Shown here: piece by piece, positions 1 through 4,796 of the stretch
Layout: each line of letters opens with the position of its first letter
Position numbering within the stretch: the first letter of the stretch is position 1
From: a virus
Lineage: Duplodnaviria > Heunggongvirae > Uroviricota > Caudoviricetes
Reading direction: 5' to 3' (one strand)
Length of the DNA: 4,796 nt
Virus record (IMG/VR): IMGVR_UViG_2534682164_000007
The notes under the pieces: model-generated
Databases searched by the model: none
What the model was told of the DNA's origin: nothing
The model's input: the letters and a program-made list of their open reading frames with translations, nothing else
Position numbers and translations under genes: made by a program

Positions 1-102
1 GACCAGCTACGTCGCTGGACATATGCTGGCGGTAAGCAATGGAAAGGGCTGATGACCCGTCGTGAGATTGAGCGTGAAGTCTGTTTGTGGGGGCAGCAAT
101 GA
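1..102 (+). CDS. R: Phage endolysin (lambda R-like), C-terminal fragment; 5' end lies outside the window
   Basis: Frame 1 is open from base 1 to TGA at 100-102 and translates [33 protein letters not shown]. The stop overlaps the Rz start (ATGA at 99-102), as in the lambda R/Rz junction. Identity rests on position directly upstream of Rz and my recollection of the lambda R C-terminus. Confidence 0.7.
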
Positions 103-563
103 GCAGAGTCACCGCGATTATCTCCGCTCTGGTTATCTGCATCATCGTCTGCCTGTCATGGGCTGTTAATCATTACCGTGATAACGCCATTACCTACAAA
201 GAGCAGCGCGACAAAAACGCAAGAGAACTGAAGCTGGCGAACGCAACCATTACTGACATGCAGCAGAGACAGCGTGATGTTAATGCACTCGATGCTAAAT
301 ACACGAAGGAGTTAGCTGATGCGAAAGCTGAAAATGAAACTCTGCGCGCTGATGTTGCCGCTGGTCGTCGTCGGTTGCACATCAAAGCAGTCTGTCAGTC
401 AGTGCGTGAAGCCACCACCGCCTCCGGCGTGGATAATGCAACCAGCCCCCGACTGGCAGACACCGCTGAACGGGATTATTTCACCCTCAGAGAGCGGCTG
501 ATGACGATGCAGATGCAACTGGAAGGGGCACAGGAGTATATCCGCACTCAGTGCATTAAGTAG
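99..563 (+). CDS. Rz: Rz i-spanin (inner-membrane spanin subunit, type II membrane protein)
   Basis: From ATG 99 the ORF reads [34 protein letters not shown]..., an N-terminal TM anchor followed by a charged coiled-coil-like periplasmic domain, which from memory is near-identical to lambda Rz. A G-rich SD-like run (GGGGG, 89-93) precedes ATG 99. The track's GTG 87 start adds MGAA and is less likely. Stop TAG at 561-563. Confidence 0.9.
319..501 (+). CDS. Rz1: Rz1 o-spanin (outer-membrane lipoprotein spanin subunit), entirely embedded in the +1 frame of Rz
   Basis: 60-aa [63 protein letters not shown]. It has a signal peptide with lipobox (VVGC), a proline-rich mature region, and its own SD (AGGAG at 307-311, 7 nt before ATG 319). 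From memory it closely matches lambda Rz1. Confidence 0.85.
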
Positions 564-605: not shown

Positions 606-956
606 ATGCCATCACTAATCCCACGTGCCTGCCGTAAGCGTGGATGTGCAGGTACAACCACAGACAGTTCGGGTTACTGCGATAAACATCGCGGTGAAGG
701 CTGGGTGCAGCACCAGCGCGGACTGAGCCGCCACCAGCGTGGCTATGGCTCAAAATGGACGGTGATTCGTGCCCGTATTCTGAAGCGCGATAAAGGTCTG
801 TGTCAGTTGTGTCTGCGTGTCGGTGTGGTGAGCGAGGCGAAAACCGTCGACCACATCATCCCGAAAGCGCATGGCGGAACAGACGCAGACAGCAACCTGC
901 AGAGTCTGTGCTGGCCCTGCCATAAAGCGAAAACAGCGCGCGAACGAATCCGGTGA
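606..956 (+). CDS. HNH endonuclease (small phage HNH protein of the type associated with terminase/cos cleavage)
   Basis: 116-aa ORF with an N-terminal Cys-rich stretch (CRKRGCAGTTTDSSGYCDKH) and a C-terminal HNH motif (VDHIIPKAHGGTDADSNLQSLCWPCHKAKT, with a second Cys pair). SD-like GAGG at 596-599 precedes ATG 606. Size and position just upstream of the terminase genes match HK97 gp74-type HNH proteins. Confidence 0.88.
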   Translation: MPSLIPRACRKRGCAGTTTDSSGYCDKHRGEGWVQHQRGLSRHQRGYGSKWTVIRARILKRDKGLCQLCLRVGVVSEAKTVDHIIPKAHGGTDADSNLQSLCWPCHKAKTARERIR

Positions 957-1038: not shown

Positions 1039-1077
1039 ATACCCGCGAAAAATGAAATTTAACCAGGAGTGCCGCAT

Positions 1078-1572
1078 ATGGCTGGAACGGCGGGGCGTTC
1101 CGGGCGTCGCCCCAAGCCAACGGCGCGCAAGGCGCTGGCCGGAAACCCCGGCAAGCGAGCCCTGAACAAAGATGAACCTGTTTTTACGCCCATCAAAGGT
1201 GTTGAGCCACCAGAGTGGTTCGCTGAAGAAGATCTCCCTCTCGCCACGATCATGTGGCAACTGACAACCAAAGAACTCTGCGGTCAGGGCCTGCTGTGCG
1301 TGACTGACCTGGCGGTACTTGAGCGGTGGTGCGTGGCCTATGAGTTCTGGCGACGTGCCGTGAAAAATATTGCCATACAGGGCAACACCATCACCGGTGC
1401 AATGGGCGGCAGGGTCAAAAATCCGGAGCTGACCGCCAAAAAAGAACAGGAGTCCGAGATGAGCAGCACGGGGGCAATGCTCGGACTCGACCCCAGCAGC
1501 CGCCAGCGTCTGATTGGCCTGGCGGGGCAGAAGAAAGCCACTAACCCGTTTCTGAAAATTATCGAATCATGA
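1078..1572 (+). CDS. Terminase small subunit (P27-family-like)
   Basis: 164-aa ORF from ATG 1078, with SD AGGAG at 1065-1069 (8-nt spacing). The track's GTG 1069 start overlaps the SD and is rejected. It has a basic N-terminus ([31 protein letters not shown]), has typical small-terminase size, and sits immediately upstream of, and is translationally coupled to, the large subunit (ATGA overlap at 1569-1572). Confidence 0.85.
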
Positions 1573-3302
1573 GCCGGAAATCTTACCCCAACGTAAATGC
1601 TGCAAATCAGTATGCCCGGGATGTCGTGCGCGGAAAGATTGTTGCCTGCCAGTTTGTGATTCAGGCCTGCCAGCGCCATCTTGATGACCTGATGGCGGAA
1701 AAAAGTAAGTCGTTTCGTTACCGCTTCGACAAGGACCTGGCTGAACGGGCCGCGAAATTTATTCAGCTGTTGCCGCACACCAAGGGGGAGTGGGCATTCA
1801 AACGGATGCCCATCACGCTGGAGCCGTGGCAGCTATTTGTGATCTGCTGTGCGTTTGGCTGGGTCAATAAAGGCACCCGGTTGCGCCGCTTCCGGGAGGT
1901 GTACACCGAAATCCCCCGTAAGAACGGCAAATCAGCAATCTCTGCCGGTGTTGCCCTGTATTGTTTTGCCTGTGATAACGAGTTTGGCGCGGAAGTGTAT
2001 TCCGGTGCCACGACAGAGAAACAGGCGTGGGAAGTCTTTCGCCCGGCGCGACTGATGTGTAAACGCACACCCATGCTGACGGAAGCGTTCGGGATTGAGG
2101 TTAACGCCTCAAACATGAACCGTCCGGAGGATGGCGCGCGGTTTGAACCGCTGATCGGCAACCCAGGTGATGGTTCATCACCCCACTGTGCCGTGGTTGA
2201 TGAATATCACGAGCATGCCACCGATGCGCTTTATACCACAATGCTTACCGGGATGGGGGCGCGACGTCAGCCACTGATGTGGGCCATCACCACCGCCGGG
2301 TACAACATTGAGGGGCCGTGCTACGACAAGCGGCGGGAAGTCATCGAGATGCTCAACGGCTCGGTGCCTAACGATGAACTGTTCGGGATCATCTATACCG
2401 TTGATGAAGGTGACGACTGGACCGGCCCGCAGGTGCTGGAAAAAGCCAATCCAAATATTGGCGTGTCGGTTTATCGCGAATTTTTGTTAAGTCAGCAGCA
2501 GCGTGCGAAAAATAACGCCCGTCTGGCAAACGTCTTTAAAACAAAACACCTCAATATCTGGGTGTCGGCGCGTTCGGCGTATTTCAACTTGGTGAGCTGG
2601 CAGAGCTGCGAGGATAAATCACTGACCCTTGAGCAGTTCGAGGGGCAGCCGTGCATTCTGGCCTTTGACCTGGCGCGTAAGCTGGATATGAACAGCATGG
2701 CGCGACTTTATACCCGCGAGATTGACGGTAAAACGCATTACTACAGTGTGGCCCCGCGTTTCTGGGTACCGTATGACACGGTGTACAGCGTCGAGAAAAA
2801 TGAAGATCGACGGACAGCCGAACGCTTTCAGAAATGGGTGGAAATGGGCGTTCTGACCGTTACCGATGGTGCGGAGGTGGATTATCGCTACATCCTCGAG
2901 GAGGCCAAAGCGGCGAACAAAATCAGCCCGGTCAGTGAGTCACCCATCGACCCCTTCGGGGCGACCGGGTTGTCACATGACCTTGCTGATGAAGACCTGA
3001 ATCCCGTCACTATCGTCCAGAACTTCACCAATATGTCCGATCCGATGAAAGAGCTGGAAGCAGCGATTGAATCGGGACGTTTTCATCATGACGGCAATCC
3101 CATCATGACCTGGTGTATCGGCAACGTGGTCGGCAAAAACATGCCGGGTAACGATGATGTGGTGAAACCCGTCAAAGAGCAGGCGGAAAACAAAATCGAT
3201 GGTGCAGTTGCGCTGATTATGGCGGTTGGCAGAGCCATGCTGTACGAGAAAGAAGACACGCTGTCTGACCACATTGAGTCCTACGGGATCCGCTCGCTTT
3301 AA
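1569..3302 (+). CDS. Terminase large subunit (ATPase plus nuclease; HK97/Terminase_1-like)
   Basis: 577-aa uninterrupted ORF. It has a deviant Walker A P-loop ([14 protein letters not shown], nt ~1909-1950) and a Walker B-like hydrophobic stretch ending in DE ([10 protein letters not shown]). The C-terminal half carries acidic residues consistent with an RNase H-like nuclease domain ([11 protein letters not shown]...). Size and position between terS and portal fit. Confidence 0.92.
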
Positions 3303-3313
3303 CTGAGGTAATT

Positions 3314-3496
3314 ATGATCATGCTGATTCTCGCGCCTCTGGTGGGCGTGCTGGGTGCGCTTTTGCTGGCGTATGGTGCCTGGCTGATTTATCCCCCGGCG
3401 GGTTTTGTTGTTGCCGGGGCGCTGTGCCTGTTCTGGTCGTGGCTGGTGGCGCGATATCTCGACCGTACACGGCAGTCTGTCGGCGGAGGTAAATAG
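3314..3496 (+). CDS. Small hypothetical membrane protein (60 aa, two predicted TM helices, charged C-terminus)
   Basis: [67 protein letters not shown] at 3305-3308 lies 5 nt before ATG 3314 (an alternative ATG is at 3320). It has host-like codon choice, fits exactly between the terL stop (3302) and the portal start, and its stop TAG 3494-3496 overlaps the GTG at 3496. Function cannot be assigned from sequence. Confidence 0.6.
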
Positions 3497-4652
3497 TGTT
3501 CTTTTCGGGATTATTTCAACGAAAAAGCGATGTGCCGGTGACCACGCCAGCAGAACTGCTGATGCTATCGGGCTGTCATACGACACCTATACCGGAAAGC
3601 GGATCAGTAGCCAGCGGGCCATGCGCCTGACGGCGGTCTATTCTTGCGTCAGGGTGCTGGCAGAGTCTGTTGGTATGCTGCCCTGCAGTCTCTACAAAAT
3701 CAGCGGTACCCTGAAAACACGGGCGGTGGATGAACGACTGCATAAGTTGGTTTCGGCAAAACCTAATGGCTACATGACACCGCAGGAATTCTGGGAGCTG
3801 GTTATTGTCTGCCTGTGTCTACGGGGGAATTTTTACGCCTACAAGGTAAAGGCACTGGGAGAAGTGGTGGAGCTTCTTCCGATAGATCCGGGCTGTGTGG
3901 AACCGAAGCTGAACAGCCAGTGGCAGCCGGTTTATCAGGTGACGTTTCCGGATGGTTCCGTGGATGTGTTGACCCAGAATGAAATCTGGCATGTGCGCAC
4001 CCTGACGCTGGATGGATTTGTCGGGCTGAATCCCATTGCGTATGCGCGTGAGGCCATTTCACTGGCAGCGGCAACCGAGGAGCACGGTGCCAGGTTGTTT
4101 AGTAATGGTGCGGTGACATCCGGTGTGTTGCGTACGGAACAAAAGCTCACGCCGGATGCTTACGAGCGTCTGAAGAAAGATTTTGAGGAGTGTCACACGG
4201 GGCTTGGCAATGCTCACCGCCCGATGATTCTGGAAATGGGGCTGGACTGGAAGTCGATGGCGCTGAACGCCGAGGACAGTCAGTTCCTGGAAACCCGCAA
4301 GTTTCAGCTGGAAGAAATCTGTCGTCTGTTCCGGGTGCCGTTGCACATGGTGCAGAACACCGATCGCGCCACCTTCAACAATATCGAAGAGCTGGGGCTG
4401 GGATTTATCAACTATTCACTGGTGCCGTATCTGACCCGCATCGAACAGCGGATCAACACCGGACTGGTACGAAAAAGTAAGCAGGGCGTTTATTACGCCA
4501 AATTTAACGCCGGGGCGTTACTGCGCGGGGATATGAAGTCCCGTTTTGAAGCCTACGCCACCGGGATCAACTGGGGAATTTACTCTTCCAATGACTGCCG
4601 CGACCTGGAAGATATGAATCCGCGTCCCGGTGGTGTAATGCCGATCAGTTAA
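3496..4652 (+). CDS. Portal protein, HK97 family; N-terminal ~30 codons are in a different frame from the rest of the gene (apparent 1-nt indel near 3588), so possibly a pseudogene or a sequencing error
   Basis: The long ORF (frame of 3621..4652) encodes portal-like sequence (KRISSQRAMRLTAVYSCVRVLAESVGMLP..., 415 aa in the track). Its in-frame upstream extension to ATG 3405 overlaps the small membrane ORF by 92 nt and looks like non-protein read-through. A second frame opens at GTG 3496 and reads [31 protein letters not shown] before stopping at 3628-3630. The two frames join cleanly if one T is inserted after 3588 (P-YTGKRISS). The first in-frame ATG of the long frame after the upstream gene is 3621, with no clear SD. 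Confidence 0.85.
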
Positions 4653-4685
4653 GGATCAGTTGACCGATCCAGTGGCTGTGTAAGA

Positions 4686-4719
4686 ATCCGGAAACGCTCA
4701 CTTGTTTCCGGATTTTTTT
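4686..4719 (+). terminator. Rho-independent terminator-like hairpin downstream of the portal gene
   Basis: Perfect 10-bp inverted repeat ATCCGGAAAC (4686-4695) / GTTTCCGGAT (4704-4713) with an 8-nt loop, followed directly by a T-run through 4719. It lies 34 nt after the portal stop. Confidence 0.6.
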
Positions 4720-4796
4720 ATGCACATTGGACAGGCTCTTGATCTGGTATCCCGTTACGATTCTCTGCGTAACCCACTGACTTCTCTGGGGGATTA
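4720..4796 (+). CDS. 5' end of a downstream ORF (MHIGQALDLVSRYDSLRNPLTSLGD...), presumably the next head-morphogenesis gene; truncated by the window edge
   Basis: ATG at 4720 opens a frame that runs to the window end. There is no recognisable SD (the upstream sequence is the terminator T-tract), so the start is uncertain. Function is inferred only from position after the portal. Confidence 0.3.
   Translation, partial: MHIGQALDLVSRYDSLRNPLTSLGD

Follow-up and report, generated by a model that had tools for sequence, protein, structure and literature searches.

The portal gene in this DNA is very probably a pseudogene with two independent lesions, lying in a Shigella sonnei prophage remnant whose late region is of the P27/ST64B/e14 type. 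The window, by which we mean the whole 4,796-nt stretch analysed, reads on the + strand through Rz/Rz1, HNH, TerS, TerL, YmfR and portal genes and then into the left end of IS4. The Rz spanin gene (87..563, with Rz1 embedded at 319-501) was recognised by PF03245 and PF06085; the HNH endonuclease of the packaging module (606..956) by PF01844 gene calls and by its phiP27 homologue, which is annotated as an HNH endonuclease and adjoins the cos site of that phage; the P27-family terminase small subunit (1069..1572) by TIGR01558 at 72 bits; and the terminase large subunit (1569..3302), intact at 577 aa, by PF03354 and PF20441. Next in the list of open reading frames is a ymfR-like small membrane ORF of 60 aa (3314..3496), whose homologue is named YmfR or membrane protein in phiP27, E. 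coli A36 and e14 of E. coli K-12. All of these features are on the + strand, as are those described below.

The exact TerL protein occurs in 4305 blocks of the assembly collection, and the window as a whole is 99.98% identical to several S. sonnei chromosomes, that of Ss046 among them, with one SNP (T4017 vs C). The T at window position 4017, where all other S. sonnei loci have C, changes a Leu to Phe (TLTLDG-F-VGLNP) in the portal pseudogene; the exact 343-aa product carrying this allele was found on three contigs (two places listed), represented by the chromosome HE616528.1, presumably that of S. sonnei strain 53G, and by short draft contigs. Over the TerS region (window 1050-1590) there is no nucleotide similarity to phiP27 (L001) or to E. 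coli A36 (L002), and the sequences on either side do match them, at 92-94% in HNH and ~83% in the TerL/portal region, rising to ~94% over ymfR and portal. Such a TerS mismatch between matching flanks shows what appears to be a mosaic exchange within the packaging module.

The split reading frame and the missing base

That the portal N-terminus is divided between two reading frames, as the original prediction held, is borne out. One frame opens at GTG 3496, whose G is shared with the TAG stop of the 60-aa ymfR ORF (3314-3496), and closes at TGA 3628-3630 after 44 codons (3496..3630 by ORF list and translation), 21 of them specifying portal residues and 23 being out of frame. The other, longer frame extends from 3405 to 4652 and, apart from tandem TTG codons at 3405, 3408 and 3411, has no start before ATG 3621, again as proposed. 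This ATG lies 5 nt before the stop of the 44-codon ORF (ATGCGCCTGA) and lacks a Shine-Dalgarno sequence; it opens the 343-aa ORF (3621..4652) that is the usual gene call, reaching from Met43 to a stop inside IS4, with its last five residues (VMPIS) spanning the junction.

DNA alignments with phiP27, SfIV, ST64B, SfI, phi467 and two E. coli prophages show the window to lack one base that every intact relative has, the gap falling at T3557/G3558-C3559, and the site measures 181 nt in the window as compared with 182 nt in 30 of the 30 E. coli matches listed. A tblastn comparison with seven intact portals placed residues 1-21 on 3496-3558 (95% identity, E 1.9e-8) and the remainder on the long frame as far as 4634. 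Portal codons 1-21 occupy 3496..3558 in the native frame, with the same N-terminus in K-12 BeeE, and codons 23-380 occupy 3561..4634 in the long frame, where by tblastn, profile matches and the alignment with 8cez they span the whole conserved HK97-type portal core. What has been lost (3558..3559) is one G of an ancestral CTG-GCT at codons 21/22 (Leu21-Ala22): two intact relatives found by pattern search, L020 from IMG/VR and L027 from a metagenome, read CAGAACTGGCTGATGCT where the window reads CAGAACTGCTGATGCT, between identical flanks, so exactly one G of a GG pair is missing. With that G restored, the translation matches the relatives and K-12 BeeE.

The deletion had originally been placed near 3586-3591 and the missing base taken for a T. 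The net deficit of one nucleotide is real, but its site is 3558/3559, ~30 nt further upstream, and comparison with L020 and L027 identifies the lost base as a G of CTG-GCT. Insertion of a T after 3588, the repair then suggested, would restore the frame but produce 10 wrong residues; the peptide LMLSGCHTTP of the 3496 frame is out-of-frame sequence and not portal. Nor does the long frame become portal-like only from ~3588, since homologues match it already from 3561 (DAIGLSYDTYTGKR). Tested against homologue N-termini by tblastn, the frameshift does appear as a passage from the 3496 frame into the long frame, but the switch occurs at 3558 rather than ~3588, and colinearity of homologues with the long frame upstream of 3588, which had been named as evidence against a split gene, is seen over 3561-3588.

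The native start and family of the portal

The GTG overlapping the upstream small ORF, proposed as the beginning of the portal, is the native start according to the annotations of relatives, the GGAGG before it and the pattern of synonymous codons after it. The GGAGG Shine-Dalgarno sequence (3486..3490, from the sequence and the alignments) stands 5 nt upstream of GTG 3496; the eight aligned sequences do not vary over window positions 3490-3509, which take in the final G of this motif and the GTG, and the three compared over 3480-3509 do not vary either. Six relatives (phiP27, E. coli A36, E. coli C311, SfIV, phi467 and beeE of K-12) have their portal annotated with the ymfR-overlapping GTG as its start; for ST64B the annotated start is one codon further upstream. 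Nine intact relatives have 16 variable codons between them within codons 1-42; 13 of these show nothing but synonymous changes when read in the 3496 frame, as opposed to 1 of 16 in either of the other frames, a pattern that shows this N-terminal extension to be coding and under purifying selection in the relatives.

Alternatively, one could suppose that the portal natively starts at ATG 3621, with the upstream 42 codons outside the protein and no true 5′ lesion. In favour of this, the portal of phage SfI (L017 623-1738) is annotated from an internal ATG equivalent to window 3621, and the conserved core begins about there (PF04860 from residue 47, TIGR01537 from residue 39). However, the frame upstream of the SfI ATG is open for its 42 codons and identical to that of the other portals, so that the SfI record probably has an under-called start, an annotation choice; the other annotated relatives begin at the GTG or, in ST64B, one codon before it; nothing comparable to GGAGG precedes ATG 3621; and the HK97 portal aligns from residue 27. 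Because codons 1-42 vary mostly synonymously in the 3496 frame, ATG 3621 is not the native start, and we consider this alternative very improbable. A protein made from ATG 3621, one of the outcomes put forward earlier, would accordingly not be the native form, as 42 codons under purifying selection precede an ATG that has no Shine-Dalgarno sequence.

With GTG 3496 as the start, the repaired translation matches TIGR01537 over residues 39-379 (profile 3-343 of 343) with 263.8 bits, against a cut-off of 112.05, and PF04860 over residues 47-373 with 358.1 bits, against a cut-off of 39.1. It also matches 8cez_A, a 424-aa portal chain which we take to be the HK97 portal (E 1.6e-50, residues 27-380 vs 41-398), as well as the HK97-family portal Rcc01684 of Rhodobacter. 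A single intact frame for the ~413 aa portal is absent: the deletion at 3558/3559 splits off codons 1-21 and IS4 removes codons 381-413. Judged from its sequence, the gene is a pseudogene of the HK97 family (TIGR01537 / PF04860) and not a functional member. Its upstream neighbours are TerL and then ymfR, as in the family; downstream, in Ss046 and the window's strain, come IS4, IS2 or IS600, and then chromosomal genes. On one contig (L026) the portal stands between the TerL side and protease and capsid genes.

The IS4 insertion and the region beyond it

Homology to intact portals ends at 4634/4635, where IS4 has inserted after codon 380. The long ORF ends in ...PRPGG-VMPIS*; its VMPIS comes from reading across the junction and stands where the relatives have their last 33 codons. 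The left end of the element (4636..4796) begins with the terminal repeat TAATGCCGATCAGTTAAG, contains the transposase ATG at 4720, runs off the window and matches IS4 InsG records at 100%. In another S. sonnei locus (L006) the complete element measures 1426 bp between inverted repeats; the IS4 transposase gene calls, of 442 aa, have Nterm_IS4 and DDE_Tnp_1 domains. Immediately to its left in the window is a 12-bp sequence, GTCCCGGTGGTG (4624..4635), the left copy of a target-site duplication whose other copy directly adjoins the right end of IS4 in L026. The target duplication of IS4 is 11-13 bp long. With its inverted repeats, a length of ~1.4 kb, a DDE transposase and the 12-bp duplication, the element at 4636 is IS4. 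This truncation at 4636, and the absence of head and tail genes after the portal, were missing from the earlier account of the gene.

L026 is an IMG/VR contig with the S. sonnei-type allele (99.88% identical over 2442 nt to Ss046, L009) and with the G deletion. At 4150-4290 it carries the IS4 right end, then GTCCCGGTGGTG, then the rest of the portal gene in register; beyond the portal are ORFs colinear with the prohead protease and capsid genes of phiP27 and then further ORFs, one of 1081 aa among them, which we read as tail genes. Its tail-tube protein is named S. sonnei in the database, on 3 contigs. Because L026 keeps the duplication, the 3′ part of the portal and the downstream genes, IS4 simply inserted into a prophage that was still complete. 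L026 is the only sequence to show the right-hand copy of GTCCCGGTGGTG together with what remains of the portal and with protease, capsid and tail genes. In the same contig (2443-2839) the portal also runs on past the IS4 target site, for 376 nt and into the protease gene; this read-through stretch meets an N, joins IS4 68 nt inside its left end and is 99.2% identical to the copy on the right of IS4. Either faulty scaffolding or the collapse of a second prophage copy accounts for it, and for that reason it is uncertain which L026 copy carries the deletion.

No head or tail gene was present beyond the portal in the ~4.7 kb of sequence read in Ss046 or the 2 kb read in the window's strain. To the right of IS4 we found bamE and recN in Ss046 and raiA-pheA in other strains; for the window's strain, the sequence read ends with nothing but IS600 on that side. 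What borders IS4 on the right thus differs among S. sonnei strains (L003-L009; ~11830 in L009, ~10493 in L006), being either bamE-recN or raiA-pheL-pheA-tyrA, and the target duplication was not found at the bamE-recN or the raiA-pheA flank in these loci (L003-L009). Variable right flanks without a duplication indicate a probable IS4-mediated deletion or inversion after the insertion. The IS4 beside the Ss046 portal is itself interrupted (L009 10187-11520) by a ~1.33-kb IS with GTGTC at both junctions, whose gene calls of 121 and 301 aa look like those of IS2; in the window's strain IS4 is interrupted by IS600 (L018 4135-5032), ~4 bp from the Ss046 insertion point, and in other strains (compared at L006 10157-10227) it is uninterrupted. 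Both lesions, the deleted G and IS4, are present in every S. sonnei-type sequence examined, including L026.

Consequences, annotation and relation to known prophages

Ribosomes starting at GGAGG/GTG 3496 would be out of the portal frame once past residue 21 and would terminate at TGA 3628-3630, yielding a 44-residue peptide. The IS4 insertion after codon 380 would in turn exchange the last 33 residues for VMPIS, and reinitiation at ATG 3621, within the overlap ATGCGCCTGA, would give at most a 343-aa core fragment devoid of 42 N-terminal and 33 C-terminal residues. We infer that no functional portal is made. No virion is buildable from the locus in Ss046 or the window's strain, since the sequence read past the portal contains neither head nor tail genes there, and a portal gene has no assembly role where such genes are not found. 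Of the three outcomes first proposed, the supported one is inactivation of the portal in a defective prophage with intact terminase genes, and we are highly confident that two lesions have made the gene a pseudogene within a prophage remnant, the frameshift being fixed in S. sonnei. The term remnant is not true of every strain, because on the minority contig L026, of S. sonnei type, genes for protease, capsid and tail persist beyond the right end of IS4. The still-intact terminase, HNH and lysis genes could reflect recent decay or some retained use.

Against the view of a dead gene one might set the fact that the 343-aa ORF, starting at residue 43, keeps essentially the entire conserved core (TIGR01537 profile 3-343 at residues 39-379). 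A truncated 343-aa product may be made from ATG 3621, going by the arrangement of the two frames, and one could envision such a core fragment, from Met43 to the IS4 junction, being expressed by termination-reinitiation and co-opted, for example against incoming related phages. Start-stop overlaps of this kind permit translational coupling, and here ATG 3621 lies just ahead of the 44-codon ORF stop; in addition, the whole core is retained and the allele is fixed in S. sonnei. However, a recent clonal species is expected to show fixation in any case, the ORF has a private Leu-to-Phe change in the window's strain, no indication of selection on the ORF was found, and IS insertions keep accumulating beside it, so we regard co-option as very unlikely. 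The more particular proposal that the core, reinitiated at ATGCGCCTGA, is kept in S. sonnei as a decoy that poisons the capsid assembly of incoming P27/SfII-like phages seems to us more doubtful still.

Two further readings would remove or bypass the 5′ lesion of what we take to be a pseudogene. The first is an error of sequencing or assembly, also raised originally, with the G present in the real genome and the 5′ end intact. A single-base indel is the commonest assembly error and the lost base belongs to a GG pair, but GG is no long homopolymer, and the same 181-nt segment, deletion included, recurs without change in each of the ten S. sonnei loci, including Ss046, that were retrieved via the exact TerL protein from independent assemblies comprising complete chromosomes and short-read drafts. 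Five further IMG/VR contigs have the deletion allele as well, and at least 1000 contigs, all named S. sonnei, bear the truncated gene call that results from it. These counts refute an assembly error, to which we assign almost no probability. A search with an exact 29-nt pattern across the lesion gave no match in a collection with one genome per species and is uninformative either way; GTDB places S. sonnei inside the species E. coli, and its genomes are therefore not expected among species representatives. Among complete E. coli genomes none was closer than 94.5% over the 181-nt site and none covered the region at 95% or more.

The second, programmed recoding by -1 ribosomal frameshifting or transcriptional slippage that restores the full N-terminus, has in its favour that the frames overlap by ~70 nt and that recoding is known in phage structural genes such as those of tail chaperones, but it is scarcely credible here: the 3496 frame contains no X_XXY_YYZ slippery heptamer in 3496-3630, no homopolymer run lies between the lesion and the stop, the two-frame layout is not conserved (nine of nine intact relatives and 30/30 of the E. 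coli matches listed are one base longer and single-frame, and therefore nothing selects for a recoding signal), and IS4 truncates the gene regardless.

For annotation, the original prediction that gene callers would report an overlong or a truncated start was correct: Ss046 has a 414 aa product from TTG 3408, and most other records have one of 343 or 336 aa. Public entries include AAZ89394.1 / Q3YYL8 of Ss046, a "putative portal protein" of 414 aa, and "phage portal protein" entries of 343, 336, 338 or 332 aa. The 414-aa and the 343/336-aa entries are artefacts of a frameshifted, IS4-truncated pseudogene. The gene calls of one complete-genome record (L003) have no product between ymfR and the IS, a gap consistent with annotation as a pseudogene. 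The importance of the locus is mainly one of annotation, namely correction of the public S. sonnei portal gene calls. This is an ordinary dead gene, with no new mechanism and no new biology; the expansion of IS elements and the build-up of pseudogenes in S. sonnei are well known, and our search of the literature on S. sonnei prophage pseudogenes and portals found no paper on the portal locus. It is nevertheless a small, clean case of stepwise prophage decay in a clonal, IS-rich pathogen, in which, after a point deletion and the IS4 insertion, head and tail genes would have been lost or relocated in association with IS elements. The deleted G and the IS4 junction are possible lineage markers.

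The closest known portals are those of phiP27, SfII, SfIV, SfI, ST64B, phi467 and P27-like prophages of E. coli, with 87-94% nucleotide identity over ymfR and portal. These phages and prophages share with the window the GTG overlapping the end of ymfR and the order HNH, TerS, TerL, YmfR, portal; their portals, however, are intact, with 405-414 codons in one frame followed by prohead protease and capsid genes, whereas the window lacks one G at codon 22, has IS4 where the last 33 codons would be and is without the downstream genes. The HK97 gp3 portal (PDB 8cez / 8fql) is a clear sequence homologue, although a distant one whose first ~40 residues are unaligned, so that it fixes only the family and the extent of the core. 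The closest described parallel is ymfR-beeE of the cryptic prophage e14 of E. coli K-12, which has the same junction and the same N-terminus and likewise consists of a decayed portal in a remnant. In e14, BeeE has been reduced to an N-terminal fragment of 157 residues, which in the K-12 record overlaps jayE, a pseudogene downstream of it, whereas the S. sonnei gene keeps the whole core domain and has been disrupted by a 1-bp deletion and an IS4 insertion.
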